Translations under genes and position numbers: made by a program
Assembly (NCBI GenBank): GCA_016179185.1
Contig: JACORW010000101.1
Location: 2,204-66,203, forward strand
Direction: 5' to 3'
Length of the DNA stretch: 64,000 bases
Source of the DNA: Gammaproteobacteria bacterium
GTDB lineage: Bacteria; Pseudomonadota; Gammaproteobacteria; Eutrophobiales; Eutrophobiaceae
The notes under the pieces: model-generated
What the model was told of the DNA's origin: nothing
Database searches by the model: none
The model's input: only the letters and a program-made list of their open reading frames with translations
Shown here: one piece after another, positions 5,976 to 55,049 of the stretch
Layout of the letters: each line of letters starts with the position of its first letter
Position numbering within the stretch: the first letter of the stretch is position 1

Positions 5976-5985
5976 GAGCTCCTGT

Positions 5986-9969: not shown

Positions 9970-10000
9970 AGCTTACCAATTGGGGTCTGACCCCATTTGG
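9970..10000. repeat. degenerate or half family-2 palindrome
   Basis: ttggggtctgaccccatttggagt between the 975-aa gene and the M4 protease gene. Confidence 0.6.
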
Positions 10001-10014
10001 AGTTACTTTACACC

Positions 10015-13629: not shown

Positions 13630-14001
13630 CTAATCCGCGATCTCGACCCGGGTCGCCTTCGGCACGCCGCCTTTCCACGCGTAACACCCGCTCATGCCGA
13701 AGCCGACGTTTTTCTGCAGCGAATACGCCGTAAGCGCCGCACTCAGCATGGCCTTCTTGTCCGGGGCGTCTTTCCAGTCAATGACAATATGACTGTATTG
13801 AAACTGCCCGCCGCAATTCAGTTCATTCAGGTATTCCGGGGAAAACTGGACGACGGCGTAGGTGGCGTAAGTAGTGATGGCGGTAATTGACGCTGCCGGC
13901 GGTGACGGCGTCGAATCTTTGACGGCCAATGCCGGAAAACTCGCAAATGCCGATACCAACGACGCCACGACCCATCCCCCGAAACTCTTTGCGGTTTTCA
14001 T
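13630..14001 (-). CDS. small secreted two-cysteine protein, paralog A (unknown function), immediately upstream of the M4 protease gene
   Basis: Signal peptide MKTAKSFGGWVVASLVSAFASFPALA, with GGAGG 7 nt upstream of the ATG at 14001. About 75% identical to the 24034-24405 product (conserved stretches KDSTPSPP...LNCGG...VIDWKDAPDKKAMLSAAL...GC..WKGG.PKATRVE). Confidence 0.75.
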   Translation of the reverse strand: MKTAKSFGGWVVASLVSAFASFPALAVKDSTPSPPAASITAITTYATYAVVQFSPEYLNELNCGGQFQYSHIVIDWKDAPDKKAMLSAALTAYSLQKNVGFGMSGCYAWKGGVPKATRVEIAD

Positions 14002-14048: not shown

Positions 14049-15266
14049 CTACACCACCAGCTCGTTCAGCCCCAATATCGCCACCAGCACCGACATGATG
14101 ATCAGCGCAATCAGACCGCCGAGTCCGAGGATCAGGACCGGCTCCAGCAACGCCAGCGCCCGCTTGATCGCGATGCGCACATTCCCGTCGTAGATCTCGG
14201 ACGTTTTGAGCAACATCTGATCCAGTTGGCCGCTCTCCTCACCCACTTCCATCAACTGCACCGCGAGCGGCGGAAACAGTCCCGACTTGCGCAGCGGGCC
14301 GGTGAGCGGCAGGCCCTGTTCCAGGCTGGCGCCCATGTCCTCGACCACGGCGGCCAGCGCGCGGTTCCTGACCACGTCGCCCGCGAGACGGATGCCGGTC
14401 AGGATCGGAACGCCGCTGCCCAGCAGGATCCCCAGTGTGCGCGTAAACCGCGCCGTCTCGAACTCCCGGATCACGGTGCCGATGAGCGGCAGCCGGAGAC
14501 AGGCCAGGTCCCAGCGCAAGCGCGGCGCCGGTTGTTCAAGCCGCTTCTTCACGATCCACCCGAGCACAACCAGTCCCGCAAGCAGCGGCAGCCAGGCGTC
14601 GCGGGCGATCCCTGCGGCACCAAACACGAGCCGGGTCAGTAACGGCAGTGTTGCGCCGGCGTCCTCGAACAACGGAATGAACTGCGGCACCACGAACACC
14701 ATGATCGCCGCGAGAGAACACAGCGCCACGACGCACAGGAGTGCGGGATATATCAGCGCCGTCTGGACCGCGGAGCGCAATTCCTGCGACTGTTCCAGGT
14801 AGGTGGCCAGGCGATCGATGACCGGGGGCAGTTCACCGGCAGCCTCGCCCGCGCGGATCAGGTTCACATGCAGCGCAGTGAAATGACGGGGATGCTGCGC
14901 CAGCGCTTCGGAAAGCGATGCGCCACGCTGCACGCTGTCCTGGATCTCCTGGATCAGGCGTTGCAGGGGCGGCGACTGCACGACTCTCGCCAATGTGATG
15001 AGCGCTTCATCCAGCGCCAGACCGGCCTGCAACAGCGTCCCCAACTGCCGCGTCAGGGCGATGATATCCCCGCGCGAAATCAGGCGGGGTCTGACCCCGA
15101 ATGGGGTCAGACCCCATTTCCACGTTGCAATACCCGGGTCCGCGCTGATGGGCAGGTGCCCCTGATCGCGCAGTTGCGCCACCGCGGCGTCCCGGGAGTC
15201 AGCCTCGATCTCCCCCTGTACCACCTGGCCGCCGGGCGCGACGGCCTTGTAGCGAAACTGCGTCAT
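14049..15266 (-). CDS. gspF: type II secretion system inner-membrane platform protein GspF
   Basis: About 405 aa with two GspF/PilC-type repeats (...ALTRQLGTLLQAGLALDEAL...), three TM segments, and operon context with gspE. Contains an in-frame family-2 palindrome (WGLTPFGVRP). Confidence 0.9.
   Translation of the reverse strand: MTQFRYKAVAPGGQVVQGEIEADSRDAAVAQLRDQGHLPISADPGIATWKWGLTPFGVRPRLISRGDIIALTRQLGTLLQAGLALDEALITLARVVQSPPLQRLIQEIQDSVQRGASLSEALAQHPRHFTALHVNLIRAGEAAGELPPVIDRLATYLEQSQELRSAVQTALIYPALLCVVALCSLAAIMVFVVPQFIPLFEDAGATLPLLTRLVFGAAGIARDAWLPLLAGLVVLGWIVKKRLEQPAPRLRWDLACLRLPLIGTVIREFETARFTRTLGILLGSGVPILTGIRLAGDVVRNRALAAVVEDMGASLEQGLPLTGPLRKSGLFPPLAVQLMEVGEESGQLDQMLLKTSEIYDGNVRIAIKRALALLEPVLILGLGGLIALIIMSVLVAILGLNELVV
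15084..15115. repeat. family-2 palindromic element located in-frame inside the gspF coding sequence
   Basis: gcggggtctgaccccgaatggggtcagacccc on the plus strand, translated within GspF as W-G-L-T-P-F-G-V-R-P in the variable linker between the N-terminal domain and the first conserved repeat. Confidence 0.85.
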
Positions 15267-27063: not shown

Positions 27064-27723
27064 TTAATTGCCGTCGTCGCCGGCCTTCGGTGGCACGGCC
27101 GGCGCAGGGTTCACCTCCACCGCCTTTGACTCCTTATTCTGTACCTCTTTCTGTGCCTCTTTGGGCGGTTCCTGCTGTTTGGGCAGGGGAGGCGCGGTCT
27201 TTTTGCCGGCGGCCGGGGACCCCTGAATGCGGAGTTCCAGAGTCCGGACTTCGCTGCCTTTTTCAAGCACCACGGCCTCCGGTTGGATCTCCGCCAGGGT
27301 CCAGCCATTCACGGCCTCACCCACCGCGATCTTGTGCACACCTTTGCCGCGAGCGGTCTCCAGTATGGCCAGGGGCCGTTCATTCGTGATCACGACCGCG
27401 GTAAGTATCATCTCCGCGGGATCCGTCGTTCCGGCGGATAGCTGCGCTGCTCCCGCTGTGGGAGCCGCAGTGGCGATCTGGGCTTTTCGGTCCGGCGAAA
27501 ACAGCGGACGTTCGGTAATCGCGGCATACTCCTGCACGGGCGGGAACGGACGCGCGTCCGGTACCGGTGCCGCCGGGGCCTCGGCGATCAACTTCGCGCC
27601 GCTGTCCGCCTTCACTTCCACCGGCCGCGCGCGGAGCTCGACGACCAGCACGCCGGCAAGCGCCAGCGTTCCCGCGGCCAGGATAAGTTGCAGGATTAAT
27701 TCCGCATTGCGCGTCAGCCGCAT
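27064..27723 (-). CDS. gspN: type II secretion protein GspC/GspN-like (XpsN-like)
   Basis: N-terminal TM anchor (ELILQLILAAGTLALAGVLVV), a periplasmic domain and a Pro/Lys-rich C-terminus. Its position between gspM and gspD matches the Xanthomonas xpsN arrangement. Sequence-level assignment is weak. Confidence 0.5.
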   Translation of the reverse strand: MRLTRNAELILQLILAAGTLALAGVLVVELRARPVEVKADSGAKLIAEAPAAPVPDARPFPPVQEYAAITERPLFSPDRKAQIATAAPTAGAAQLSAGTTDPAEMILTAVVITNERPLAILETARGKGVHKIAVGEAVNGWTLAEIQPEAVVLEKGSEVRTLELRIQGSPAAGKKTAPPLPKQQEPPKEAQKEVQNKESKAVEVNPAPAVPPKAGDDGN

Positions 27724-33279: not shown

Positions 33280-33535
33280 ATGTGGGGCCGGCCGCTCCGG
33301 ACATCCTGTCCTCGCGCGGCATTCCCCACATCCTGTGGGTCGCCGCTTTGGACAACCCGTCACGCGGCATTCCCCACATCCCTGTGGGTTGCTTCATCCC
33401 GGCCGGGATGCGAGGCACGGATAACCCCGGCCCCACAGGATTCTTTCTCAACCCGTGAGGCCGGGTTCGCCCCGGCTGCGTTTGTGGGGCCCGGTTCACC
33501 CCGGCCGGCATTCTTTGTGAACCCGCTGCCGGAAA
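33280..33535. repeat. REP family 1 cluster (degenerate copies)
   Basis: gtggggccggccgctccgg, ccccacatcctgtggg, ccggccccacaggattc, gtggggcccggttcaccccggccgg. Confidence 0.75.
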
Positions 33536-41369: not shown

Positions 41370-41379
41370 ACTTCGGCCG

Positions 41380-41440
41380 GCGTGAAGCCGGCCCCACAGG
41401 AACCGAGGATTTGTGGGGCCGAGTTTATCCCGACCAGGCG
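41380..41440. repeat. REP family 1 pair between epmA and efp
   Basis: ccggccggcgtgaagccggccccacagg ... ttgtggggccgagtttatcccgacc. Confidence 0.85.
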
Positions 41441-42086: not shown

Positions 42087-44363
42087 TCAAGCCGCCGGTT
42101 CCGGCGCCGGCGCGCGTTCCACGTTGAGCCGCGACACTTGCCGGAATCCGCGCGGCAGCATGCAGCCGCGACGGCCGCGCTCGCCGCGATAGGGATCCAG
42201 GTCACGCGGTTTCAGACTCAGCGTGCGCTTGCCCGACACCATGACCAGCGTATCTTCCGGACCGAGCATGACCATGCCGGTGACAAACTCTTCCCGGGTT
42301 CTCAGTTTGGCGCCGGGTATCTGAATGATTTTAAGGCCCTTGCCCCTGGCCAGCCGCGGCAACTGCTGCGCCGGTGTCACCAACAGGCGGCCGATGGAAC
42401 TGACCGCAGCCACGCATTCCTGCCCCGGGTCCCGGGCCTCGGCCGGCGCCAGCACGCGCGCGTCCTTCGGCACGCTCAACACCACCTTGCCGTTGCGGTT
42501 CTTCGCGTACAGGTCCTCCAGCTTCGCCAGGAATCCGTAGCCGGCATCCGTGCCCAGCAGGAACAGCGACTCCGGCGCGCCGATCATCACGCCTTCGAAC
42601 GTGGCGCCGTCCGGCGGCGTCACACGGCTGGAAATGGGCTCGCCCAGGCCGCGAGCCGACGGGAGCGAATGAGCGGGAATGGAATAGCTGCGGCCGGTGG
42701 AGTCCAGAAACACCGCAAGCTGGTTGCTGCGACCCCGCCCTGCCTGGCGGAAACCATCGCCGGCCCGATACCCAAGCGATTCGGGGTCTATTTCATGACC
42801 CTTGGCGGCGCGGATCCAGCCCTTTTCCGACAGCACCACCGTGATGGGCTCGGTCGGCACGAGTTCAGCCACATCAATCTGTTTCGCTTCCTCGCGCTCC
42901 ACCAGCGGCGAACGGCGGGCATCTCCGTACGCTTCGGCATCAGCCTGGATCTCGCGCTTCACCAGCGTCTTCATGCGCTGCCGCGAGCCCAGCAATTGCA
43001 CCAACTCGCCGCGTTCCTTCTTCAGCGCCTTGAGGTCCGCCTGGATCTTCATCTCCTCCAACTTCGCCAGTTTGCGCAGCTTGAGTTCCAGGATCGCCTC
43101 CGCCTGAACATCCGAGAGCCTGAAGCGCTTCATCAGCACGGGTTTCGGTTCGTCCTCGCGCCGGATGATGGCGATGACCTCGTCCAGGTGCAGGTAAGCA
43201 ATGAGCAGCCCCTCAAACACGTGGATCTCAGCCTCCACCTTGCCGAGACGGTGTTCGAGACGGCGTTTCACCGTCTCCAGCCGGTACTCGATCCATTCCT
43301 TGAGAATGGTGCGCAGGTTCTTGACCTGGGGCCGGCCATCGGTCCCGATCATGTTCAGGTTCGCGCGATAACTGCGCTCGAGATCCGTGGTCGCGAACAG
43401 GTGCGACATCATCTCGTCCAGGTCCACGCGGCTGCTGCGCGGCACGAGCACGAGGCGCGTCGGGTCCTCATGATCGGATTCATCGCGCACGTCCTCCAGC
43501 ATCGGCAGCTTCTTCGCCTGCATCTGTTCGGCGATCTGCTCCAGTACCCGGCTGCCGGAGGTCTGGTACGGCAGCGCGGTAATCACGACGTTGCCTTCCT
43601 CCGTCTCCCAGCGCGCGCGCATGCGCACGGAACCGCTGCCGGTCTCGTACATGCTGACAATCTCCCTGCGCGGCGTGATGATCTCCGCGGCGGTGGGGAA
43701 ATCCGGACCGCGCACGCAATCGCACAGTTCGCGCAGGGTAGTACCCGGCGCATCCAGCAGCGCAACGCAGGCATCCGCGACTTCGCGCAGGTTGTGCGGC
43801 GGAATATCGGTGGCCATGCCGACCGCGATCCCGGTGGCGCCGTTCAGCAGCACGTTGGGCAGCCGCGCGGGCAGAAGGCGCGGCTCGGTCAGCGTGCCGT
43901 CGAAGTTCGGCGCCCAGTCCACGGTACCCTGCCCGAGTTCCGCCAGCAGCAGGTCCGCATACGGCCGCAGTTTCGATTCGGTGTAACGCATCGCGGCGAA
44001 CGACTTCGGATCGTCCATGGAGCCGAAATTTCCCTGCCCGTCAATGAGCGGATAGCGGTAGCTGAACTCCTGCGCCATCAGCACCATGGCCTCGTAGCAG
44101 GCGGAATCCCCGTGCGGATGGAATTTGCCGATCACGTCACCGACGGTGCGCGCAGATTTCTTGTACTTCGCGGCCGCCTTGAGTCCCAGCTCCGACATGG
44201 CGTAGACGATGCGGCGCTGCACCGGCTTCAGGCCGTCGGCGATGTGCGGCAGCGCCCGGTCGAGGATCACGTACATGGAATAGTCCAGGTACGCTTTCTC
44301 GGTGAATTCATGCAGCGGCCGGCTTTCCAGCCGCTCGAAATCGAAGGTCAGGTTGTCGGCCAT
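42087..44363 (-). CDS. parC: DNA topoisomerase IV subunit A
   Basis: N-terminus collinear with E. coli ParC ([45 protein letters not shown]), including the active-site Tyr region. About 758 aa (ParC-sized, shorter than GyrA). Confidence 0.9.
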
Positions 44364-44399
44364 ATCGGTTGATCCGCAAGTCGGGTGGTGATGACGCAT

Positions 44400-44460
44400 T
44401 ATAATTGGCGCTGGTGGCTTGTGGCTGGTGGCTGGTGGCTGGTGGCTGGGGCTCGAGCTG
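44400..44460. repeat. heptamer tandem repeat (GGTGGCT/GGCTTGT)n, family 3
   Basis: ggcgctggtggcttgtggctggtggctggtggctggtggctggggctcgagctgg in the parC upstream region. Confidence 0.8.
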
Positions 44461-44557
44461 GTAAGGACAGCCCGACAAAATCGGTGCCGCGTCACCGGTT
44501 TTTGCCTGACGCCGCGTCAGCGATTACGATGCGCGAAGAATTTTATGGAGATGGATC

Positions 44558-46300
44558 ATGAGTTCGATGACCGCCAGAGTGAAATTGCGTTTCACAGGTA
44601 TTGCGCTGGCACTGGCCCTGTTTTGGACGCCGGCCGTTGCGTCCGTCGCCAACGGTGACTGGGACCGGTTTGTTTCCGATTACGTCGAGGCCACGTTCAA
44701 GGCGCAGCCGTACTTCGCGGTGCAGGCCGGACGCCATGAATTCGACGGACGCATGCCGGACTGGAGCAAGTCGGGGATCGAGACCGAGATCGCGCGACTG
44801 CGACAGGCGCGCAGTGCTGCGGCTGCATTCGCTGCAGCGACGCTTTCTTCCGCGCAGCAATTCGAGCGCGATTACCTCGTTGCGACGATGGACAACAGCC
44901 TGTTCTGGCTGGCGAAGGCGGGATTTCCGTTCCGCAACCCGGCCTGGTATGTGAATCAGCTCGATCCGGAGGTCTATTTGTCGCGGGAGTACGCGCCGCT
45001 GGCGCAGCGCCTGCCCGGATACCTTGGGTATGCAAAGGCCATCCCCGGCATTGCCGCAAATATCCGCGCCAATCTGCGCACGCCGCTGCCGAAAAGTTAC
45101 GTGGAATACGGCATCGCCGCGTTCGGCGGGTTCGCGGAATTTTACCGCAATGATGTGCCGAAGGTCTTTGCCGGCATCGCCAACCCGCCATTGCAGAAGG
45201 AACTGGCTGCTGCGAATGCAGCCGCCGCCGACGCCATGGGAGAACTGAAGGACTGGTTCGTCTCCCAGCGCGCCGCGGCGAATGACGATTTTGTGCTGGG
45301 CCCCGACTTGTATGCAGCCATGGTCCGGGACACCGAGAGAGTAGACATGACCATTGCGCAACTGGAAGCCGCCGGCCGCGCCGATCTGGAACGCAATACC
45401 GCCGCATTGAAAAAAGCCTGCACCGAACTCGCGCCGGGAAGCTCCCTGCGCGAGTGCGTCGGCAGAGTGCAGGATCGGAAACCGGCCAGGGGACCCGTGG
45501 CAGAGGCGCGCGTCCAACTGGTCAGCCTGCGGAAGTTCATTGACGAGAAAGGCATCGTTTCGGTGCCGGGCACGGACATCGCGCTGGTTCAGGAATCGCC
45601 TCCGTACAACCGCCAGAATTCCGCCTACATCACCATTGCGGGCCCCTTTGAAACCGGCGTCGCGTCGGTCTACAACATCTCTCCCCCGGATCCGGCCTGG
45701 ACTCCCGAAGAACAGGCTGCCTACATTGACGGCGAGGCGGAACTGCTGAACACGTCCGTACACGAGGTGTGGCCGGGGCACTTTCTGCAATTCGTGCATT
45801 CCAATCGCAGCAAGTCCGTCGTCGGGCGGCTATGGGTGGGTTATGCGTTCGCCGAGGGCTGGGCGCATTACACCGAGGAACTGATGTGGGAGATGGGGCT
45901 CGGCAACGGAAATCCGGAGAACCATATCGCGCAATTGCTGGACGCGCTGTGGCGCAATGTGCGGCTGCTGTCGTCCATCGGCCTGCACACCCAGGGCATG
46001 ACCACCGACACCTCGGAGAAGATGTTCCAGGAATTTGCGTTCAGCGATGCGGGCAATGCGCGGCAGCAGGCCCGCCGGGGAACCTACGACCCGGCATATC
46101 TCAACTACACGCTGGGCAAGCTGATGATCCGGAAACTGCGCGATGACTGGGTGGCGCGGCAGATGGCAGGCAAACCGGGTGCCGATCCGAAGTCATTCTG
46201 GCGTGCGTTTCATGACCAGTTCCTGTCCTGGGGCGGCCCGCCGATCCCGCTGGCGCGCCGGGCGATGCTGGGCGATGAGGACCAAGGGCCGTTGCTTTAA
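44558..46300 (+). CDS. DUF885-family secreted protein (putative metallopeptidase-like)
   Basis: Signal peptide MSSMTARVKLRFTGIALALALFWTPAVASVA and the conserved SVHEVWPGHFLQF (HExxPGH) motif of DUF885. Confidence 0.7.
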   Translation: MSSMTARVKLRFTGIALALALFWTPAVASVANGDWDRFVSDYVEATFKAQPYFAVQAGRHEFDGRMPDWSKSGIETEIARLRQARSAAAAFAAATLSSAQQFERDYLVATMDNSLFWLAKAGFPFRNPAWYVNQLDPEVYLSREYAPLAQRLPGYLGYAKAIPGIAANIRANLRTPLPKSYVEYGIAAFGGFAEFYRNDVPKVFAGIANPPLQKELAAANAAAADAMGELKDWFVSQRAAANDDFVLGPDLYAAMVRDTERVDMTIAQLEAAGRADLERNTAALKKACTELAPGSSLRECVGRVQDRKPARGPVAEARVQLVSLRKFIDEKGIVSVPGTDIALVQESPPYNRQNSAYITIAGPFETGVASVYNISPPDPAWTPEEQAAYIDGEAELLNTSVHEVWPGHFLQFVHSNRSKSVVGRLWVGYAFAEGWAHYTEELMWEMGLGNGNPENHIAQLLDALWRNVRLLSSIGLHTQGMTTDTSEKMFQEFAFSDAGNARQQARRGTYDPAYLNYTLGKLMIRKLRDDWVARQMAGKPGADPKSFWRAFHDQFLSWGGPPIPLARRAMLGDEDQGPLL

Positions 46301-46362
46301 TGGGGTCGGAGTGAATTATTTTTGGGCATCGCACCAAATGAATTCACTCCGACCCCATTTTC
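46298..46362. repeat. family 4 palindromic element (~62 bp), left boundary of the AT-rich island
   Basis: taatggggtcggagtgaattatttttgggcatcgcaccaaatgaattcactccgaccccatttt. Confidence 0.9.
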
Positions 46363-46380
46363 CGAAAGTAAGATTTCGAG

Positions 46381-46833
46381 TTGCTGAAATTGAATTCACA
46401 TTTCCGATGCGCGTCGTGTGGGAGGCTTGAGGGTGACCTTTCAGACGGGATGGAAAGCGTCACGTTTCTTGGAATGAAATGGTGTCCAATTTGTGCACGA
46501 ATTGGGAAGGGGCGGGAAGGAAGAAAATTTATTTCTATGCCGAGCCCAGGGCGGATGTATGAAAACACTCGGGACGACCCACTGGCTGCGTGGGAGGATT
46601 GCTTCGAGAAGAGACCTAAGAAGCGGATATTGGTAGAGGATGCCAAGGCAGAAATTCGAAGGGCATTGGATCACTGGAATGGGGATAAGTCTTCCGGCTC
46701 GGCAATGCCTGTGTTCTTTGGATGGTTAAGTCGCCACCGCCCATATTTTCTTACGTTTCGAGGACGTGGAGATACATGGCAAAAGGTGCATAGCTGGCTA
46801 CTACAGTATGAGCGTGAAAAAAGTGGCCGCTGA
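46381..46833 (+). CDS. hypothetical zinc-ribbon protein (CxxC...CxxC), island gene 1
   Basis: CASCGRLEG ... CPICARIG cysteine pairs. AT-rich codon usage, distinct from the flanking genome. Start uncertain. Confidence 0.4.
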   Translation: MLKLNSHFRCASCGRLEGDLSDGMESVTFLGMKWCPICARIGKGREGRKFISMPSPGRMYENTRDDPLAAWEDCFEKRPKKRILVEDAKAEIRRALDHWNGDKSSGSAMPVFFGWLSRHRPYFLTFRGRGDTWQKVHSWLLQYEREKSGR

Positions 46834-46897
46834 TTCGTTGGCTCGTCTAGTCAAAGAATGTGGGGGCAAATTTGACTAACACCGAGAGGGTGCTCGG

Positions 46898-47425
46898 ATG
46901 CGGGTCATACTGATTATTTTTCTAATCTGGGGGCTTTGGGCATCGATCTCAATGGGCGGTTTATACAAGCTCAGGCAAATGAACGCTGAGTTCGACTATC
47001 CAAATAAGAGCGTGCCATTTCTTCTTTCCAAACTCAGTTACTCACAATCAAATGGGTATTGGGATAGTTACCACGTAGAACAGTGCTCCTTATACATGCC
47101 CAATTGGACAAAGGCAGAACGCTGTGTGACAGCACGACTTTCTTGCGAGTATGTTGCTACACAAAAGAAAAACCTATTAAAGGACGGAGAGCATGCAGAT
47201 ATTTTTTCAGACGAGTTTCACTCATGTTGGTTAGAGAATCGTCCGTTATTCGGGCCAGTTGAATGGTTGCGCGCCTCTCGTGGCCTACTAAGGGCTGCCG
47301 TTGTTTTTGGAGTTACGTGGTTGACAGGTGGTTGGGATAAAGAAGGTGAGGAGGCGTTGAAATGGGAGAACAACAACAAAGGCTGGGTAAGACCGTTGAT
47401 CGAGTGGATGGAGAGAGCAGGTTGA
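46898..47425 (+). CDS. hypothetical membrane-anchored protein, island gene 2
   Basis: N-terminal TM (MRVILIIFLIWGLWASISMGGLY). GGATG-preceded start. No known family. Confidence 0.5.
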   Translation: MRVILIIFLIWGLWASISMGGLYKLRQMNAEFDYPNKSVPFLLSKLSYSQSNGYWDSYHVEQCSLYMPNWTKAERCVTARLSCEYVATQKKNLLKDGEHADIFSDEFHSCWLENRPLFGPVEWLRASRGLLRAAVVFGVTWLTGGWDKEGEEALKWENNNKGWVRPLIEWMERAG

Positions 47426-47456
47426 GGTAAGAGTATTAGAGTTCAGGACCACGGAT

Positions 47457-47520
47457 AAATGGGGTCGGAGTGAATTATTTTTGGGCATCGCACCAAATTA
47501 ATTCACTGCGACCCCATTTT
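47457..47520. repeat. family 4 palindromic element
   Basis: aatggggtcggagtgaattatttttgggcatcgcaccaaattaattcactgcgaccccatttt. Confidence 0.9.
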
Positions 47521-47540
47521 AAGAGCACGACTTCGATGGC

Positions 47541-48371
47541 ATGTATTATCCAACAATACGTTCCGGGTGCCTTCGTATGCCAGCAACTAATTCCATGAGC
47601 AACGAACCCCTCTTAGATCTATACGATTCGTTTTTCAAAACCGCATCGACCCCTGCAGAGCTAACTTCGCGCCTCTCTTGTCCTCTGCTCCTAAGTGTCG
47701 GGTCGGGCTGGCATCAGGCCATTCGTCGTCTCCTCGTTGTGGGCAAGGAGACTTTTGGATGGGATTGGACACCGGGCGATTATTATCCGTGGCCACACCC
47801 CCCGCTAACTACACTTGCCGACTTCAATGGCTACCCAAATGCCGTCCGCGCGCTGGTTGACGGCTACGCTTCATTCGCATTTTCAAAGCATCAATCAGCT
47901 AATTTCAACGGCCCTTTCTGGCGAGCGTTCCGCCAGTTGCACGAAGAAATCAATGAAGGCCACAAAGCAGATATTCTTTGGACCAACCTGTTCAGATGCG
48001 ACCTCGAGGGCGGTTCGGTAATTGATCGGGCCACTCCCGCCGAACTGAACAACATCCTGGCGTTTCAGCATGGTTTGCTAAGCCGCGAGATACGCATCCT
48101 TTCGCCAACCGCCGTCGTCTTCTTCACCGGACCCAACTACGATCTCGCCCTCCGCGCCGAGTTTCCAGACATTGTTTTTGCCCCAGTCTCCGGCCATGTA
48201 GAGCGGCAGTTTTGCCAGATCGCCCATCCTGACCTACCGACGCCGTCGTTTCGCATTTATCATCCGAATTATCTAGCGCGGAATCACAACAGATGGCTTT
48301 GGCTTCGGGAAGTAGCGTCGTATATTGCCACGTCTACAGCGATGCCCGGAAGAGGTCCAGAACACCATTAG
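47541..48371 (+). CDS. hypothetical protein with weak uracil-DNA-glycosylase-superfamily-like motifs, island gene 3
   Basis: The motif order resembles the UDG-superfamily fold: VVGKETFGW (GExPG-like), WTNLFRCDL (xTNvvKCrP-like), AVVFFTGPN (central strand), IYHPNYLARN (HPSPLxx-like). Speculative. Confidence 0.45.
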   Translation: MYYPTIRSGCLRMPATNSMSNEPLLDLYDSFFKTASTPAELTSRLSCPLLLSVGSGWHQAIRRLLVVGKETFGWDWTPGDYYPWPHPPLTTLADFNGYPNAVRALVDGYASFAFSKHQSANFNGPFWRAFRQLHEEINEGHKADILWTNLFRCDLEGGSVIDRATPAELNNILAFQHGLLSREIRILSPTAVVFFTGPNYDLALRAEFPDIVFAPVSGHVERQFCQIAHPDLPTPSFRIYHPNYLARNHNRWLWLREVASYIATSTAMPGRGPEHH

Positions 48372-48444
48372 TCGTTTGAGCGTAACCGCACATACATCGT
48401 TAACCGCCGAATAAATTGCAATTATCGATGACAGGTAGCGCTAC

Positions 48445-48879
48445 ATGACTGTACTCAAAATCCTTGCTTTCTTGGCTGTACTGGCCGCGTTGGTATGGTC
48501 TGCGCGCGCATTGAACGAATACTCCGAAGAAAAATATAGATATCATCCGTTCAATGTAGGGAATACGTTCACTATGGTTCTTTCAATCGTCCTGTTCGTT
48601 ATAGCTGTGCTCGTGCTGCCTGAGGGCCAGACTCTGAGCGCAGTCCTATCTGATGCCGTGAAGCTCAATGTCACGGAGGAGACCTCAAATACTGTTGTGC
48701 TGATTGTTCTAGCGGCCTTAGTCGCAGTGATCGTGTACGTACACACTGCTATGAAGTCAAATATACTGATCGCGACGTATGCCATGATTGTGCAATTCCT
48801 TGCGGCACTCCTCATTTTTGTGATTCTTGTCCTTGCGCTCATGAGCACAGGTTCAAAGCACAAACGACGATCGCGTTGA
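48445..48879 (+). CDS. hypothetical integral membrane protein (4 TM), island gene 4
   Basis: Four hydrophobic segments, with a basic C-terminus KHKRRSR. Confidence 0.5.
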   Translation: MTVLKILAFLAVLAALVWSARALNEYSEEKYRYHPFNVGNTFTMVLSIVLFVIAVLVLPEGQTLSAVLSDAVKLNVTEETSNTVVLIVLAALVAVIVYVHTAMKSNILIATYAMIVQFLAALLIFVILVLALMSTGSKHKRRSR

Positions 48880-48989
48880 AAAAGACTGGCCATCAGCCAC
48901 AAGATAACGCACTTACTCACACGGCTATGCCCCGAGATTAAGACATCGTTAATGTGTAATTAAACGTAGCCGCGTCAAAAAAGAAAAAA

Positions 48990-49020
48990 GGGGGTCGGAG
49001 TGAATTAATTTGGTGCATCG
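48990..49020. repeat. left arm of a family 4 palindrome, overlapping the 3' end of the second RAYT gene
   Basis: ggggtcggagtgaattaatttggtgcatcg. The matching right arm is 760 bp away at 49784-49815, so the RAYT gene lies between the two arms. Confidence 0.8.
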
Positions 49021-49712
49021 GCATTGGTTTCGCGGCATGGACGACCAATTTTGCAATGTCCAATCTTTCGACCGAGTGCAGATTCTACCTCAGCGCGGAA
49101 TCGCGCGTTACCCACCGGGTAATTGTAGGCTAGACATTGCCGGATGTGATGAATGTCGTCGTCCTGGAGCGGGGACCTGAACCATTCCCGATAGGCCCAC
49201 TGCCGTTCGGCATCACTGGCGCCCAATTGGAGATAGAGAGGATGTTCATTCAGCAGGTCGTCCGTTTCGCCCCAGGCATGAGATCGGTATGAGGACCAGC
49301 GATATTGTTCTGGCGCCTCAACCATGCCTGCCGCCACCGGGTTCATCTCAATGTAGCGCATGCAGGTCAGCAGAAAATCGGATGCATGCACAAGACTCGC
49401 TTTGTGGCGTCCCTCCCAGAGCGTGCCGGTACGCCGATAGGCACGGTTTACATACAGCACATAATGCCGTCCAACATGCTGCATGACCCGGGAAATGCCC
49501 GAGGCGTCACTCGGCGTCATCAGCAAGTGCACATGGTTGGTCATCAACACGTAGGCATGCAAGGCAACGCCAAAGCGCCGTAATCCTTCGCCCAGGCAGC
49601 GCCGATAGAACAGAAAATCATCCGGGCAGAAAAAACTGGCACTGCGGTTGTTGCCGCGCTGCACGACATGTGCCGGAATACCGGCCAGATACATCCGTGT
49701 CTTTCGAGGCAT
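49005..49712 (-). CDS. second REP-associated tyrosine transposase (RAYT, distinct lineage from 2261-2770)
   Basis: HVHLL (HxH) motif, LWEGRHKASLV, YIEMNPVAAGMV and the C-terminal Tyr region (YRWSSY). The N-terminus MPRKTRMYLAGIPAHVVQRGNNR is typical of ~230-aa IS200-like REP-associated transposases. Confidence 0.8.
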   Translation of the reverse strand: MPRKTRMYLAGIPAHVVQRGNNRSASFFCPDDFLFYRRCLGEGLRRFGVALHAYVLMTNHVHLLMTPSDASGISRVMQHVGRHYVLYVNRAYRRTGTLWEGRHKASLVHASDFLLTCMRYIEMNPVAAGMVEAPEQYRWSSYRSHAWGETDDLLNEHPLYLQLGASDAERQWAYREWFRSPLQDDDIHHIRQCLAYNYPVGNARFRAEVESALGRKIGHCKIGRPCRETNADAPN

Positions 49713-49783
49713 GGCAACTCCATTGCCACTCTGTTAAAGATTACATCCGGATCATCCTGAAATCTCCGACCGGATGCAATCAC

Positions 49784-49815
49784 GCACCAAAATAATTCAC
49801 TCCGACCCCATTTTT
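49784..49815. repeat. right arm of a family 4 palindrome, 5' of the second RAYT
   Basis: gcaccaaaataattcactccgaccccattttt. Confidence 0.8.
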
Positions 49816-49821
49816 CATTTT

Positions 49822-50724
49822 TCAAAAGATTGGTATTTCGAATTCGGCGTCAAAATCCACTCCCGGGACATCCGAGCGCGCCCTGAGCACCCAGTCAACC
49901 TTGTTGGTGCCGCTGCGGATGTCGGTTCCCAAGCCTCCCACCGGCAATGTCAGGCGTACCGGAATGATCACCGAGCGATTCGCTCGGGTGAAGTCCCCCG
50001 GATCCACTGTGACCGGCGTGCCTTCCCATAGCACGTCCACCTTGATGTTCGTTTCCCTGGGTTCGAACACTTTCGGGACGTTGCGCACGTGACGATTTGC
50101 GATCCCGACGGTCACGGGGAAGGTCAGGTACCTGCCACGCTCGACCTCGATTTTTCCCTCGAGCGGGCCTCCCAGACGATATGGAAGGCTATCGGGCAGA
50201 AACCAGGCACGGCCAAACTTGACAAAACGGCGACCAAAATAAAACGCGGCCCAGATGAGACAAAACCCGGCGGCCGGAAACCCAAACGCATAGAGCCACA
50301 TCCCCGTTTCCCCGAGCCACCCTTGCGCCAGGATATAAGCGGCCACCGGCAGCGAAATCGCATTCCAGACAATCGCGCACATCCAGAAAAAAGCCATCCA
50401 AAACAGGCCATCGTCGGCGATACGGCGCCTGTGCCAGTCTTCGCGCCACAGCCACGGTTCATCGGGATGTGCCGCCTGCTGTGCGAAAAACCGGCGGGAG
50501 CGGCGCACCCATCGGATGCCTCCCACGATGCCGCCTCCGCCGATGGCAGCCGCCCCCGCGCCAAATGCCAGAAAGACGGCCCCGCCTTCATACCCCCCTT
50601 CTAACAGCATTGTTACGCCACCGAACATGCAGAACAGGCCAATCAAAAGGACGATGGAGCAGATTGCAACGATGATTATGAGTTCGGCCGTCCCGGTCGG
50701 ACGGCTGTCAGTAGTCGCCACCAA
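49822..50724 (-). CDS. hypothetical membrane protein with a Gly-rich N-terminal TM region, island gene 5
   Basis: Several TM segments (LIIIVAICSIVLLIGLFCMFGGV; GGAVFLAFGAGAAAIGGGGIVGG; FWMAFFWMCAIVW). No known family. Confidence 0.5.
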   Translation of the reverse strand: MVATTDSRPTGTAELIIIVAICSIVLLIGLFCMFGGVTMLLEGGYEGGAVFLAFGAGAAAIGGGGIVGGIRWVRRSRRFFAQQAAHPDEPWLWREDWHRRRIADDGLFWMAFFWMCAIVWNAISLPVAAYILAQGWLGETGMWLYAFGFPAAGFCLIWAAFYFGRRFVKFGRAWFLPDSLPYRLGGPLEGKIEVERGRYLTFPVTVGIANRHVRNVPKVFEPRETNIKVDVLWEGTPVTVDPGDFTRANRSVIIPVRLTLPVGGLGTDIRSGTNKVDWVLRARSDVPGVDFDAEFEIPIF

Positions 50725-50726
50725 AA

Positions 50727-50788
50727 TAAATGGGGTCGGAGTGATTTATGTTGGTGCATGCACCAAAAAAATTCACTCCGACCCCAAT
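50727..50788. repeat. family 4 palindromic element, right boundary of the island
   Basis: aaatggggtcggagtgatttatgttggtgcatgcaccaaaaaaattcactccgaccccaatt. Confidence 0.9.
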
Positions 50789-50805
50789 TCCTGTGAGCTG
50801 CAGAG

Positions 50806-52326
50806 CTATGGAGCAGGTGTCGCCTCCAGCGCAGCATCGGCTTGCAGGAAGCCGGCGCCGACCGGGTCGCAGGGTTCTCCGTTGCAATCCGTATCCCAGG
50901 AGCCTTCGCCCGCAATGATCGGAACGGGAATAATGCGGCTGTCATCGCCCGACATCGGGAGCGTCGTGCTCTTCATGATTCCCTCCACGGCGGCCTGATC
51001 CAGGGCGGGATTCTTGCCGACGATGAGCGCCGCCACTCCGGCCGTGAGCGGCGAGGAAAAGCTCGTGCCGCTCCAGAAACAGAACGTCTCGTTGCCGCCT
51101 CCCACCCCGGCCAGCCGGCACGGCGCGACCGTGAATTGCCCCGGCGCCACCACGTCCAGCTCCTGCGGATCAATACCGAAGCCGGTGCCGAGCGAAGGGA
51201 TCGCACGGCTGCTGAAGGTGGCAATGAACGCATTCTGCTCCTCGCTGTCCCCGGTGCCGTCCGGGTCGTTGGGCACGTCCACCGAGCGCCAGAAACTGGC
51301 CGCCGTGAACTGATTGACAAACCCCGCGGCGGCGGCCGAAATCACCTCCGGATACGCCCCCGGCCAGCCCATGCCGGCCTCGCCCTCGTTGCCGGCCGAC
51401 GCCACCACGATCACCCCGGCGGCAATGGCATCGTCAATGGCCGCCCGATCGGCCGTGCCGGGCGCACCGCCTCCCAGCGACATGTTGATGACCACCGGGC
51501 CGATCACCCCGTCGATCTTGAGCTGGGTGACATAGTCTATGGCGGCGATGATCCGGGAACTCCAGGTAAACGCCTCGCCGTTCGGGAACACCTTGAGCGG
51601 AATGATCGTGGCCTCCGGCGCGACGCCGTCGATCACAGTGCCGGCGAACTTGAAGCCGACAACATGGGAAGCGACCGACGTCCCGTGGCTGTTGGTGTCG
51701 CGCTGCCACATGTCGGTCGGATTCGAGGTGGTGAACTCGTCCACGGGGACAAAGTCTTCGGCCGTCGCGCCGCCGCCCATGAAGGCCCGGGCAAGCCCCG
51801 TGGCCACTCTGCCCTCGTCAATGAAGCTCCGCCACTCGCGCATCATCCCGGTGTCGATCACCGCCACATGCACGCCGGCACCGGTCTCGGCGACCTCGCG
51901 GGCGTCATCGTTCAGCCAGGGCGCCGCATCGGCCTCCACATCCACGACATCGAGAATGTCCCGATCCCACGTTCCGACGGCGCTCAGCCAGCGAATTCGA
52001 TCCGTTTCCACCGACTCCACGAAGTCAAACCCTTCGATGGTCGCTCGCGCCCTTGACCCGCGCGGCGTCACCACGATGAGGTTGCGGTTGTGGATGACCC
52101 CGTGGACGGTGCCGTACGCTGCCACCTGCTCGCGCATCGCCTCGGTAACCGGCACCGAGGATTTGATGATCAGGCGATTCTGCTTCGGCGCCTTGCCCTG
52201 GTTGTCGAATGCCAGAACGGGTTTTCGGGTCAGCTCGTCGGTTTCCGATACCTGTCCATAGCCAGCCGTGCTGGCCAGCAGCACGGCACACGAAGTAAAA
52301 GCAAGAAAAATAAGGGGGCGTTTCAT
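50806..52326 (-). CDS. secreted S8-family (subtilisin-like) serine peptidase
   Basis: HVAVIDTGM (Asp), HGTSVASHV (His) and GTSFSSPLTAGVAALI (Ser). Signal peptide MKRPLIFLAFTSCAVLLASTAGYG, with GGAGG 8 nt upstream of the ATG at 52326. Confidence 0.85.
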   Translation of the reverse strand: MKRPLIFLAFTSCAVLLASTAGYGQVSETDELTRKPVLAFDNQGKAPKQNRLIIKSSVPVTEAMREQVAAYGTVHGVIHNRNLIVVTPRGSRARATIEGFDFVESVETDRIRWLSAVGTWDRDILDVVDVEADAAPWLNDDAREVAETGAGVHVAVIDTGMMREWRSFIDEGRVATGLARAFMGGGATAEDFVPVDEFTTSNPTDMWQRDTNSHGTSVASHVVGFKFAGTVIDGVAPEATIIPLKVFPNGEAFTWSSRIIAAIDYVTQLKIDGVIGPVVINMSLGGGAPGTADRAAIDDAIAAGVIVVASAGNEGEAGMGWPGAYPEVISAAAAGFVNQFTAASFWRSVDVPNDPDGTGDSEEQNAFIATFSSRAIPSLGTGFGIDPQELDVVAPGQFTVAPCRLAGVGGGNETFCFWSGTSFSSPLTAGVAALIVGKNPALDQAAVEGIMKSTTLPMSGDDSRIIPVPIIAGEGSWDTDCNGEPCDPVGAGFLQADAALEATPAP

Positions 52327-52384
52327 GGCGATTCCTCCGACTCGTGGCATGCCTTGCCGTTGCACGGATATTAGAAGCATACCT

Positions 52385-52470
52385 CGCATTCAAGCTAAAA
52401 GCAGCTACAAGCTACAGGTAAACGGACCGCGATATTTGCCTTTGGTTCTTGGTGGCTTGTAGCTGTTTCA
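52385..52470. terminator. family 3 heptamer-repeat stem-loop (CAGCTACAAGCTACAGG ... GGTGGCTTGTAGCTG) at the 3' end of the TonB-dependent receptor gene
   Basis: Inverted repeat read directly, with an ~45-nt loop. Confidence 0.5.
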
Positions 52471-54951
52471 CAGTGACACCCGGATCCCCACGAACCCTGC
52501 CCTGGGCGCGGCGGGACCGAGGAACCTCGGGTCATTGAATCCCTGGAACTCCGGCAGGTCCACGCTGCTCGGATCCTCGCCCAGCAATCCGAAGGTTTCG
52601 TAATCGGCATTGAACAGGTTCGTGACCCGCGCCAGAAGTTCGATTTGATCGGTCAGGGTCCAGGATCCGCGCACGTTGACAACGGCGTACCCGTCCACAC
52701 GATCAAGCTGGTTGGACTCATCGCCGCGCATCACCTGCCTTGAGTTATAGAGCAGGTCCAGGCCGAGGCCCAGCGTCGGGGCAAGTCTTACGTCGGCGCC
52801 CAATTTGAATTGATGCGCCGGGATCCCCGGAATATGGTCGCCGGGACGCACCTGGATGGTGCCGTCTTCGTCCGCGAATTCGTGGTTCGGGCTCAACACG
52901 GCGAGGTTATCCTGAAACGTTGCGTGAATGTAACTGTACGCACCGTACCATTCCAGATTTCCAACGGCGCCCGTCAATGACCCCTCGAAGCCCATGCGCC
53001 GGGTTTCGTCCACGTTGGCGAAAAGCCCGGTGGAACGACCCGTGGACTGAAAAATGATGTCGTCGTTGCTGACGGTATGGAAGAACGCCGCGCGGTAGCG
53101 GATCCGATCTCCGACCCGGCCGCGCACGCCGGCCTCCCAGCTTTCGGCCACGACCTGGTCGAGTGGCGGATCGGAAAGAAACGCATTCGGCAGCCGGCAT
53201 TCGAATTCGACATCGTCCGGGTCCCCGCCTTCCGCCACGGCGTTCGCCACGGCGATCTCGAAGATCCGATCATTGCAGGACAGTTCGATGGGCGTCGGCG
53301 CGCGCGAGGATTCGCTGTAGCCGGCATAAAGATTCATGTTCTCGCTGAAACTGAATGTGGCGCCCAGCGCCGGGTTGAAGCGATCGAAATCGTGTTCGCC
53401 GTTCAGCTCCGGCCGTTCGCCGGATTGGTCGGCCAGATCCACGGCCGTGTTGTTATAGCGTCCTGAGATGGTCACGCTGAACCGATCGGTGACATCCAGC
53501 GTGTCCGTGAAGTAAAGGCTCCAGCTCTCCGTAGCGGTGTGGATGTTCGTCGCCGCGGGATCCAGAAACGCCCCGGTGCCCAGTTCGAGCGAACTGCGCG
53601 TGGCCGGGTCGAAGCGCGCCAGCTCCACCACCGCGTCGAATGCCGTTGTGCCGCGGTACCAGGCCCCGCCGAATACCAACTGGTTGCCTTTCCCGAACAC
53701 ATCCCGGCGCAGAGAAAGTTGCAGATCGACGCCACGGCTCTTCTGCACGCGCGCGCTCTGGTTGTTGATGGCCTGATCGGACAGCACGCCGGTGCCGGAA
53801 ATCTCATCGGTCAGGTCCTCGACATGGAACACATCCGCGGCCCCGGCGGCGGCATTGAGAAAATCCTCAAGCGCACCCGCGTCCGCAAACTGATCGCCGC
53901 ACACGTCATCTTCCTCAAGCCCCAACTCCTCCAGGTCGTCGTCCTCCAGCCCGTCCAGCAAACGCTGTGCGCCGCCCAGGCCGCACAGGGCAAGTTCCGT
54001 CCCGTCGCCGTTGAACGAATCGGTTTCGTTGCGGCGGTAATAGGCGGTCCCCGAGACGGTCATTTCATGCGTCAGCTCATGGCTGCCATCGAGGCTGACC
54101 ATCACCATGTCGTTTTCGGTGATATCCGGGGCGGTGAAGACCGTATCGCGCTCGATGGCCATGAGTTCCACCGGCAGCGGGCCGTTTCCGAACAGCTCGC
54201 TGCTGCCGTACTGCGCGTTCAGGTTCAGCGCGGAGCGTGTCCCGCGCCACCCGAAACTGCCGAAGACATTCAATGAATCCGACTCCGACAGCTCGCGCCA
54301 GCCGTCTTCGTCAAAATAGTTCATGCCGACGTAATAACCCCAGGTGCCGTTGTTGGCGCCGCTTTCCGCGTCCACGACCCGGCGGTCGAACGACCCGCCC
54401 CACAGCTCCGCGCTGTGCCCGGCGGAATTGAACCCGTCCTTCATGCGCACCGACAGCGCCCCTCCCAGCGCGTTGAGCCCGAACACGGGATTCGCGCCGC
54501 CGATGAGTTCCACCGAGTGAATGGCCTCCTCCGGCAACAGGTCCCAGTTGATGGTATCGCCCAGCGGTTCGTTGATGCGCGCGCCGTTCTGGTACACGGC
54601 CAGGCCCTGTGCCAGCCCGAGCAGCGGCGACGCGGCAAATCCGCGGTACTGCAGATCGGGCTGAAGGGGATTGTTCTGGGCCTCGTTCAGGTTGACGCTG
54701 GCCAGATTGCGGTTCAGGAAATCGGACAGGTCGAGGCTTTCGGATCGCTCGATGTCCTCGCTGGTGGCGGACTGGACGTTGTACGGAATTTTCTCCTCCG
54801 GCAAGGCCGCGCCGTGGGACGGGGTGACCCCGATGACGACGACTTCATCCAGCGCCTGCTCGGCACGGGGCGCAGAAAACGTGCCGAGCACAACGACCAG
54901 GCAGATTGCGCCCGGTATCGCCATGTGTCCGTTCAGGAACCCGCTCAACAT
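52468..54951 (-). CDS. TonB-dependent outer-membrane receptor
   Basis: Signal peptide, then a TonB-box-like DEVVVIGV, plug domain and a long beta-barrel. GGAGG lies 8 nt upstream of the ATG at 54951. Confidence 0.85.
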   Translation of the reverse strand: MLSGFLNGHMAIPGAICLVVVLGTFSAPRAEQALDEVVVIGVTPSHGAALPEEKIPYNVQSATSEDIERSESLDLSDFLNRNLASVNLNEAQNNPLQPDLQYRGFAASPLLGLAQGLAVYQNGARINEPLGDTINWDLLPEEAIHSVELIGGANPVFGLNALGGALSVRMKDGFNSAGHSAELWGGSFDRRVVDAESGANNGTWGYYVGMNYFDEDGWRELSESDSLNVFGSFGWRGTRSALNLNAQYGSSELFGNGPLPVELMAIERDTVFTAPDITENDMVMVSLDGSHELTHEMTVSGTAYYRRNETDSFNGDGTELALCGLGGAQRLLDGLEDDDLEELGLEEDDVCGDQFADAGALEDFLNAAAGAADVFHVEDLTDEISGTGVLSDQAINNQSARVQKSRGVDLQLSLRRDVFGKGNQLVFGGAWYRGTTAFDAVVELARFDPATRSSLELGTGAFLDPAATNIHTATESWSLYFTDTLDVTDRFSVTISGRYNNTAVDLADQSGERPELNGEHDFDRFNPALGATFSFSENMNLYAGYSESSRAPTPIELSCNDRIFEIAVANAVAEGGDPDDVEFECRLPNAFLSDPPLDQVVAESWEAGVRGRVGDRIRYRAAFFHTVSNDDIIFQSTGRSTGLFANVDETRRMGFEGSLTGAVGNLEWYGAYSYIHATFQDNLAVLSPNHEFADEDGTIQVRPGDHIPGIPAHQFKLGADVRLAPTLGLGLDLLYNSRQVMRGDESNQLDRVDGYAVVNVRGSWTLTDQIELLARVTNLFNADYETFGLLGEDPSSVDLPEFQGFNDPRFLGPAAPRAGFVGIRVSL

Positions 54952-55049
54952 TACGAATCCTCCTGGTGACAAATGCAGCCAACGCCGAAAGTGACCAGGG
55001 CCGCAGGCTTGGTTAATTCGCGGCTTGAATTGCCGCGATCGGGAAACGG

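Follow-up and report, generated by a model that had tools for sequence, protein, structure and literature searches.

A low-GC islet and a REPIN-RAYT system at the junction of two convergent core genes in a gammaproteobacterial genome

The described systems closest to the locus reported here include the REPIN-RAYT systems of repetitive extragenic palindromic (REP) sequences, the small low-GC islets between conserved core genes, and the attC arrays of integrons. The locus lies at 46.3-50.8 kb of a 64-kb stretch of contig JACORW010000101.1, hereafter called the window in its whole length, which comes from a gammaproteobacterial metagenome-assembled genome (MAG; GCA_016179185.1). It holds five low-GC genes (A to E), the gene of a REP-associated tyrosine transposase (RAYT), and three copies of a palindrome, termed family 4 in a preliminary description of this DNA. 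We propose that the region is probably a mosaic islet of horizontally acquired accessory genes at a repeat-prone junction of two convergent core genes. Its palindromes are the REPINs of a REPIN-RAYT system and are not specific to the islet. The islet and the REPIN-RAYT system each belong to known kinds of object.

In the described REPIN-RAYT systems (PMC3116915, PMC5581495; E. coli TnpA_REP), as at this locus, the gene of a Y1/HUH transposase is bracketed by inverted REP arms, and hairpin doublets of the same arms lie in extragenic space right after stop codons; the association of arm, doublet and RAYT seen at this locus is kept across organisms whose RAYTs are 65-85% identical. The RAYTs of the REPIN-associated groups are mostly inherited vertically (PMC5581495). 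The present locus differs in several respects. While the E. coli-type REP is a short palindrome preceded by GTAG, a single arm here forms no hairpin by itself, and GTAG is absent from the arm consensus. The RAYT of 235 residues has its last codons and its stop inside an arm and scores under the NCBIfam equivalog cut-off. Moreover, the arms of the window are confined to a low-GC islet that is missing in relatives, and the unit of arm, RAYT gene and arm stands at another locus in a relative.

REPINs and the RAYT gene

How are the palindromes related to the RAYT? A search for the 20-mer AAATGGGGTCGGAGTGAATT with at most three mismatches gives eight matches in the window, against 0.01 expected, all of them within 46298-50789. 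These eight arms make up three full palindromes of 62-63 nt, which the preliminary description had correctly placed (at 46298, 47457 and 50727, the last actually beginning at 50728), and two single arms in inverted orientation, absent from that description, which bracket the RAYT open reading frame (ORF). When extended, the two single arms occupy 48978-49016 and 49784-49822; they are 39 nt each, 90% complementary, and 767 nt apart. Head-to-head joining of the two gives the 62-nt element, which identifies the palindromes as REPINs belonging to this RAYT, as Bertels and Rainey define the term (PMC3116915, PMC5581495).

Folded as single-stranded DNA, the doublets reach -22 to -26 kcal/mol (z -7.8 to -10.4), while the single arms form no such structure (-0.5 and -1.7 kcal/mol, z about 0). 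Every element lies 0-31 nt after a stop codon, namely that of the DUF885 gene, gene B, the S8 peptidase gene, gene E or the RAYT gene itself, and this position directly after stop codons is classic for REPs. The TAA stop of the DUF885 gene (46298-46300) forms the first three bases of REPIN1, and REPIN3 is intercistronic, 15 nt after the stop of the S8 gene and 3 nt before the start of gene E. In the RAYT gene, the 3′ arm encodes the last four codons (D-A-P-N) plus the TAA stop, and an orthologue likewise ends in DAPK and a stop.

The presence of a second RAYT in the region, claimed in the preliminary description, is borne out by the ORF at 49005-49712, whose Y1_Tnp domain carries the HUH and tyrosine motifs. 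The protein matches Pfam Y1_Tnp (PF01797) at 1.1e-8, with 35.6 bits against a cut-off of 23. Its match to the NCBIfam model REP_Tyr_transpos (NF047646) reaches 59.9 bits, under the cut-off of 80, and covers only residues 40-140; a PDB sequence search gave no significant match.

REPIN1 and REPIN2 stand in the same orientation, differ by two substitutions over 63 nt (~97% identity), and have a common unusual centre (GGGCATCGCACC) that is missing from REPIN3 and from the RAYT arms. Their flanks are unrelated. On these grounds, we regard them as sister copies that arose when the element alone was recently duplicated. As an HUH/Y1 transposase acting on single strands, the RAYT would copy the hairpins into nearby non-essential extragenic space, and the hairpins, with their AAA...TTTT flanks, may double as transcript-end structures; scans for promoter and terminator consensus sequences did no better than shuffles. 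The 62-nt element also resembles miniature inverted-repeat transposable elements (MITEs) and the palindrome-associated derivatives of the insertion sequences (IS) of the IS200/IS605 type, in that it consists of both ends of a transposase unit with the interior deleted. In contrast to these, the transposase unit is apparently single-copy, with no second one in the window, and is of the RAYT type, not an IS.

Does the palindrome family belong to the islet? The preliminary description had taken the elements as a feature special to the island, which the distribution of the family contradicts. We scanned JGI metagenome contigs with a 26-nt arm pattern and found 15 stretches on about 10 contigs with overall GC contents of 0.61-0.69. 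These contigs hold many doublets; as many as 10 arms fall within 12 kb, one contig of 76 kb has 18, and the 400 nt on each side of nearly every metagenome arm have a GC content of 0.60-0.78. Across 21 doublets from at least eight contigs, the outer 16-bp stem (GGGGTCGGAGTGAATT / AATTCACTCCGACCCC) is almost invariant, and the inner stem is variable with some compensatory changes; 88% of the cells are paired, as compared to 34-49% for slid-partner controls. The same arms, doublets and arm-RAYT-arm unit thus occur in other organisms, mostly in high-GC intergenic DNA, so that the repeats belong to the REPIN-RAYT system and not to the island. A general tie of family-4 REPINs to low-GC DNA is rejected, as the flanks of most copies elsewhere have a GC content of 0.65-0.75. 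Against viral contigs, the REP 16-mer gave single matches only and no doublets, which by a rough estimate is about the chance expectation.

The arm-RAYT-arm unit is a discrete entity present at different loci. On JGI contig Ga0209172_10000187 (L027/L028), a RAYT orthologue with 65-70% amino-acid identity is bracketed by the same single arms in DNA of 0.65 GC, beside a gene whose sequence reads as that of an RND-type (resistance-nodulation-division) pump. On two ENA contigs, L044 and L045, a RAYT with 85.5% nucleotide and amino-acid identity is flanked by the same arms; the stretch that resembles the window coincides exactly with 48987-49813, the outer ends of the two arms being its limits, and what lies beyond on either side is unrelated. 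One flank holds the end of a high-GC gene, the TAA stop of which overlaps the arm and the C-terminus of which looks outer-membrane-protein-like. In the other flank, a Sel1-repeat gene of low GC (0.46-0.51) is followed by a full REPIN and by the beginning of a high-GC gene which, from its encoded sequence, looks like a major facilitator superfamily (MFS) transporter gene. Just before this REPIN, at 1740-1826 of L044 (ENA ERZ27284380 k139_429757), stand stuttered partial copies of the 5′ end of the element (AAAATGGGGTGG, AAAATGGGGTCGC), which could be abortive or decayed insertions.

Composition, insertion site and assembly support

The GC content is 0.498 at 46400-48900 and 0.521 at 46298-50790, against 0.632 ± 0.017 (minimum 0.597) in background windows of 2.5 kb. 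The fall from 65% to 48% in the preliminary description is therefore real in itself, although slightly overstated in size, the measured values being ~63% and 50%. The GC content at third codon positions (GC3) is lowest in genes B (0.48) and A (0.49), followed by D (0.53), C (0.57) and the RAYT gene (0.60), and reaches 0.69 in E, while that of the neighbouring genes is 0.74-0.88, with the S8 peptidase gene (0.80) among them. The low GC3 of A-D (0.48-0.57) as compared to native genes, and the absence of the stretch in two relatives, uphold the horizontal acquisition that had been deduced from composition.

The informative relatives number two, L018 and L008: one is the MAG RIFCSPLOWO2_02_FULL_61_13 (DUF885 77% and parC 88% identical in amino acids), and the other is a contig with a DUF885 protein of 80% identity. 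In both of them the DUF885 gene and the TonB-dependent receptor gene converge directly, across a gap of 182 nt in L018 and 60 nt in L008. The region is thus missing in both relatives, a comparison of the kind suggested with the preliminary description, and the inserted stretch is 46301-52467, S8 peptidase gene included; the S8 gene itself has no match in L018 or L008. It follows that the island does not end at 50790, as had been supposed, and that the palindromes are not its borders: they are the REPINs of the adjacent RAYT, and the indel goes ~1.7 kb past REPIN3.

The empty junction carries other palindromic repeats in both relatives, and we therefore regard it as a repeat-prone extragenic site. 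In L018, these are represented by a MITE-like element of ~100 nt with 16-nt inverted ends (GGTCCGATCTCCTGTTG ... CAACAGGAGATCGGAC) at 11740-11880, and in L008 by GC-rich REP hairpins at 1385-1440. A tRNA or small-RNA integration site is ruled out by the lack of any tRNA gene within the window and of any Rfam match in 44-53 kb. A Pfam scan of the span from 44.5 to 55 kb found no tyrosine-recombinase domain in any ORF. The locus thereby resembles the small islets at intergenic junctions of convergent core genes, in which a few kilobases of low-GC ORFans lie between conserved core genes, relatives have the empty site, and, as in the islet of the window, there is no integrase or tRNA gene. It differs from them in being composite, with GC3 values from 0.48 to 0.80, and in containing a native-looking S8 peptidase gene and a RAYT. 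A literature search on REP-flanked islands found nothing relevant. In the MAG, the islet is covered by locus tags HYR49_10840-10860 and proteins MBI1733243-48, and it lies two genes away from parC (Table 1).

Could the island be a chimera, made of segments bounded by the 63-nt repeats and mis-joined in the MAG? The near-identity of REPIN1 and REPIN2 would allow such an artefact, a k=31-based Logan contig (L019) breaks inside REPIN2, and the left part, DUF885-REPIN1-A-B-REPIN2, is seen in the MAG assembly only. On the other hand, 47469-49702 (99.9%) and 49699-53093 (100%) were recovered independently in Logan contigs assembled from SRR12113390, and in one of them (L043, 100% identity) the 5′ end of the RAYT gene, E, REPIN3, S8 and the receptor gene are contiguous. 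In addition, both normal reads and the large k-mers that metagenome assemblers use exceed the repeats in length, and REPIN1 forms the stop codon of the DUF885 gene in frame, with a conserved C-terminus. We consider a mis-assembly of this kind very improbable indeed, the least likely of the alternatives weighed here.

Table 1. Features of the locus and its neighbourhood, in window coordinates
Feature	Coordinates	Strand	Characteristics
parC	42087-44495	-	DNA_topoisoIV 3e-140; adjoins DUF885 gene
DUF885 gene (left anchor, core gene)	44558-46300	+	Pfam DUF885 9e-82; orthologues 77-80% aa in L018, L008
REPIN1	46298-46361		full palindrome; -25.5 kcal/mol, z -9.4
Gene A	46381-46833	+	150 aa, TTG start; four-Cys zinc ribbon, then helical domain
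Gene B	46898-47425	+	175 aa; one N-terminal hydrophobic (signal or anchor) segment, 4 Cys
REPIN2	47457-47520		full palindrome, 31 nt past stop of B; -25.8 kcal/mol, z -10.4
Gene C	47595-48371	+	258 aa from M19 of 276-aa ORF starting 47541; UDG-superfamily motifs
Gene D	48445-48879	+	144 aa; four-TM (transmembrane) protein by hydropathy
Single REP arm, 3′ end of RAYT gene	48987-49016	+	inverted-repeat pair with 49784-49813
RAYT gene	49005-49712	-	235-aa Y1/HUH transposase; Pfam Y1_Tnp; HUH motif NHVHLL; catalytic-Tyr motif MRYIEMNP
Single REP arm, 5′ side of RAYT gene	49784-49813	-	8 nt past stop of E; inverted-repeat pair with 48987-49016
Gene E	49822-50724	-	300 aa, TTG start; Gly-rich (12%) membrane protein, N-terminal TM segments, motif AHPDEPWLWREDW
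REPIN3	50728-50790		full palindrome, more diverged; -22.3 kcal/mol, z -7.8
S8 subtilase gene	50806-52389	-	Pfam Peptidase_S8 1.4e-34; GC3 0.80, native-like
TonB-dependent receptor gene (right anchor)	52468-54972	-	Pfam TonB_dep_Rec_b-barrel + Plug; orthologues 74-76% aa

The accessory genes and the glycosylase-like protein C

The earlier descriptions of the proteins proved correct: a CxxC...CxxC zinc ribbon (A), membrane proteins (B and D), a protein like uracil-DNA glycosylase (UDG) (C), and a Gly-rich membrane protein (E). Do these genes form a module? The six island proteins matched no family of PADLOC-DB 2.0 at E values up to 0.1; this database dates from 2023, before Brig1 and Brig2. Scans of PHROGs and NCBIfam with all six yielded no defence annotation either, and for genes A-E neither they nor Pfam identified a family. 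Homologues of A stand beside HicAB, beside a NucS_C-like gene with IS21 and an integrase, and on a conjugative plasmid. Those of C stand within the accessory region of a prophage, with Cro, an S24 repressor and HigB, beside a KAP NTPase gene, and among WYL, DnaG-like and UvrA-like genes, while those of E stand in an insertion between ftsZ and lpxC with MazE-Fic. Homologues of A and C lie below the host GC in some genomes. When all of the island proteins were compared by tblastn with every fetched locus of the A, C and E homologues, only the query gene was found; a conserved module A-E is thereby rejected, as no other island gene lies near any of these homologues.

Together, the lack of co-occurrence and the lack of family matches indicate that the five genes, members of five small, unrelated families of patchy distribution, are a mosaic of independent accessory genes and not a module. 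The suggestion of a small defence or anti-phage module is therefore not supported, the proposed search for defence systems having come back empty in PADLOC. The alternative suggestion of a mobilised cargo set fits if it is taken loosely, to mean a mosaic of accessory genes that are mobile; a coherent set it is not, as the homologues never co-occur.

An islet in which some or all of A-E act together against phages, for instance as a glycosylase with membrane effectors, is in our judgement improbable. It would accord with the orphan UDG fold of C, with the prophage, KAP NTPase and WYL/DnaG-like/UvrA-like surroundings of its homologues, with the HicAB and NucS-like nuclease genes that adjoin A homologues, with a low GC content in line with the behaviour of defence islands, and with the precedent of Brig1 and Brig2. 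However, besides the empty PADLOC result, no island gene stands beside another at any homologue's locus, so that C alone would be a single-gene system; C has no sequence relation to Brig1; and sequenced phages contain no match to C, which has only two distant matches in IMG/VR. As a single-gene defence candidate, C is plausible.

Gene C carries the motifs G(Q/K)ET-GW, FWRAF, LWTNLFR, FFTGPNYD and YHPNYL, and has the alpha/beta/alpha fold of the UDG superfamily. Its match to Pfam UDG (PF03167) has 20.5 bits, under the gathering threshold of 24.3, and a few members of its family are annotated as PF03167. Among 5.8 billion protein clusters, we found 73 homologues, from Nitrospirae, Pseudomonas, Burkholderia, Sulfurimonas and others; a PDB sequence search gave no significant match. 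In the family alignment, G50, F108, W109, H223 and P224 are invariant, and Q51, E52 and N131 are at least 90% conserved; GQETxGW follows strand 1, and LWTNLFR lies at a strand end. The order of the motifs presumably parallels that of GQDPY, the stacking Phe, LLLN and HPSP in family 1, a correspondence taken from motif order. C would accordingly retain the water-activating loop at G-Q/K-E-T, the stacking Phe in FW, the Asn that reads the base in WTN, and the HP motif, and with these catalytic-type positions kept it is most likely an active monofunctional DNA glycosylase, as far as the sequence tells. The loop differs from those of the known superfamily members, reading GQET (GKET in the window copy) in place of GQDPY or GxNPG, and the C family is a previously unnamed clade of the superfamily.

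The divergent UDG-like proteins Brig1 (PMC11078745) and Brig2 (bioRxiv 10.1101/2025.10.29.685425) are anti-phage glycosylases encoded on mobile, lower-GC DNA. An hhalign comparison of the C-family profile with Brig1, the sequence of which was taken from supplement 1 of PMC11078745, gave a probability of 0.1% and an E value of 0.45; this comparison, made with Brig1 alone, detects no sequence relation and excludes C from Brig1. By analogy, C is a reasonable candidate for a defence glycosylase of the Brig1/Brig2 kind, and an action on modified phage bases, like that of Brig1 and Brig2, would be speculative. A phage origin of C is rejected: 50,697 phage genomes contain no match, and only two distant ones were found in IMG/VR, in addition to four distant ones in plasmids.

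In a Nitrospirae MAG (NCBI GCA_026387665.1, L001 3061-9532), a C homologue with a GC content of 0.47, at a locus of 0.59, has a WYL-domain regulator and a DnaG-like primase-domain gene on one side and a gene for a 929-residue UvrA-like ATPase on the other. This cluster may be an uncharacterised defence or repair cluster.

Gene A has 103 full-length homologues with the invariant four-Cys motif, C10, C13, C35 and C38 being invariant across 65 homologues. It is unannotated in the public MAG record, where MBI1733243 (DUF885) is followed by MBI1733244 (gene B), probably owing to its TTG start. Gene B belongs to a rare family, with only 30 matches among 1.84 billion representative proteins. Gene D was called independently on Logan contig L019, and its exact sequence is present in NCBI and Logan. 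A plasmid search gave one distant match for A and none for B or D. For gene E, there are 49 homologues, and forms of 299 residues support the long start; its distant relatives have ~480 residues, some with PF12158. On JGI contig Ga0394876_0011505 (L040 6082-8900), a 57%-identical E homologue (P0078) lies in the insertion between ftsZ and lpxC, together with an ABC (ATP-binding cassette) substrate-binding gene, MazE-Fic and a duplicated 51-residue C-terminal fragment of FtsZ. This insertion is an islet within the otherwise conserved dcw (division and cell wall) cluster.

Movement of the unit and the wider repeat landscape

Several observations weigh against the explanation proposed here. The eight family-4 arms are packed into 4.5 kb, the remaining 59.5 kb of the window contain none, and both native REP families avoid the islet; a genome-wide REPIN population in this host is therefore an assumption. 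The RAYT gene has a GC3 below that of native genes and is missing from the orthologous junction in L018 and L008. The 85.5%-identical unit at another locus, on L044/L045, fits mobility or horizontal transfer better than the usual vertical inheritance. Low-GC ORFans are bracketed by family-4 elements in three independent cases (the window, L021 and L044), which may be more than coincidence. Finally, in the GQET loop, the Q that at least 90% of the family carries is replaced by K in the window copy of C.

Some of these observations bear on a different history, in which the whole block at 46.3-50.8 kb, with the RAYT unit and REPINs, came from another genome and has been caught before the REPINs spread in the host. 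Such an en-bloc acquisition would explain the confinement of the arms and the avoidance of the islet by the native families. It also agrees with the GC3 of the RAYT gene and E (0.60 and 0.69, against 0.74-0.88), with the absence of the block in relatives, with the absence of family-4 arms from ~190 kb of loci of 11 relatives, and with the homology to L044/L045 that ends exactly at the outer arm ends between unrelated flanks. The GC3 of the block is heterogeneous, however, from 0.48 to 0.69, and the block is thus not the native DNA of a single donor; where family-4 REPINs abound, the organisms have 0.65-0.69 GC, unlike genes A-D; and the confinement of the arms is judged from 64 kb of the host genome. 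Furthermore, a 51-nt match of L044 to a GC-rich repeat region of the window suggests a related host and not a distant donor, and REPIN-associated RAYTs are mostly vertical (PMC5581495). We therefore view transfer as one block as unlikely, though the strongest of the alternatives.

Are the hairpins landing sites for genes? They could serve, like attC, as landing or recombination sites at which foreign ORFs are inserted or exchanged, possibly by the RAYT. The locus resembles integron attC arrays in that imperfect palindromes of about 60 nt, able to fold when single-stranded, lie between small genes of low GC that are mostly ORFans: A-B, C-D and E lie between family-4 elements in the window, as does the Sel1 gene of L044/L045. 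On contig L021, a low-GC 186-residue membrane ORF lies between two REPINs, beside a Gp49/HTH toxin-antitoxin pair, a further likeness to integrons; and REPIN1 and REPIN2 are near-identical direct copies around A-B. The elements nevertheless have no R''/R' boxes of the attC type (RYYYAAC/GTTRRRY), their ends reading AAATGGGG...CCCCATTT; the Pfam scan of ORFs in 44.5-55 kb shows no IntI gene, and no integrase gene lies in the islet; and the bracketed modules comprise two genes, in mixed orientation. Unlike attC sites, the family members are scattered between core genes of high GC and go together with a Y1 transposase. Since most of them lie between high-GC genes, one per 1-2 genes, bracketing is expected from density alone. 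The homologues of A, C and E elsewhere have no such elements, and capture of foreign DNA by a Y1 transposase has no known mechanism. Gene capture at the hairpins is thus highly unlikely in our view. The simplest reading is that this lineage is densely populated with REPINs, some contigs having about one for every 1-2 genes, and that foreign, non-essential DNA close to the RAYT tolerates their insertion.

The window contains further repeats. A first RAYT gene lies at 2261-2821 on the minus strand (Y1_Tnp 4.9e-11), with flanks at 2131-2328 and 2792-2911. Its GC-rich REP family (GTGGGGCCGGGTTTACCCGGCC / GGCCGGCTGAAAGCCGGCCCCAC) occurs also at 185-316, 1424-1785, 26698-27120, 33413-33511, 41375-41440 and 58976-59037, with an 82-nt tandem array at 26711-27120. 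A second native REP family, GGGGTCTGACCCCAT, is spread elsewhere in the window and, like the GTGGGGCCGGGTTTACCCGGCC family, is not found in the islet. A third palindromic family, GGGGTCTGACCCCATTCGGGGTCAGACCCC, at 5921-7006, 9976-10003 and 15068-15124, has its GGGGTC start in common with the family-4 arms. A second low-GC stretch, at 17067-23924 on the minus strand (GC 0.505, GC3 0.52), consists of one 2285-residue ORF with Peptidase_S8, fervidolysin-like prodomain, CARDB, Y_Y_Y and TSP_3 domains. Direct repeats of 249 nt (71% identical), at 13630-13878 and 24034-24282, bracket 13.9-24.0 kb.

What does the locus mean for these families? Gene A represents a well-conserved zinc-ribbon family for which there is no Pfam model. 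After Brig1 and Brig2, the intact catalytic-type motifs of C and its mobile, patchy spread make it a cheap, testable candidate for an anti-phage or modified-base glycosylase. A RAYT unit with sharp ends, in a foreign, strain-variable spot and at another locus in a relative, is one of few such cases that bear on the horizontal movement of REPIN-RAYT systems, whose inheritance the literature regards as vertical almost without exception. The farthest-reaching combination, in which the arm-RAYT-arm unit moves between loci or genomes and the hairpins act as landing sites of an integron-like gene-capture platform, with C as a captured cargo from a new family of defence glycosylases, is a long shot; if it were true, this REPIN-RAYT lineage would be a gene-capture platform rather than a purely selfish or domesticated repeat system.

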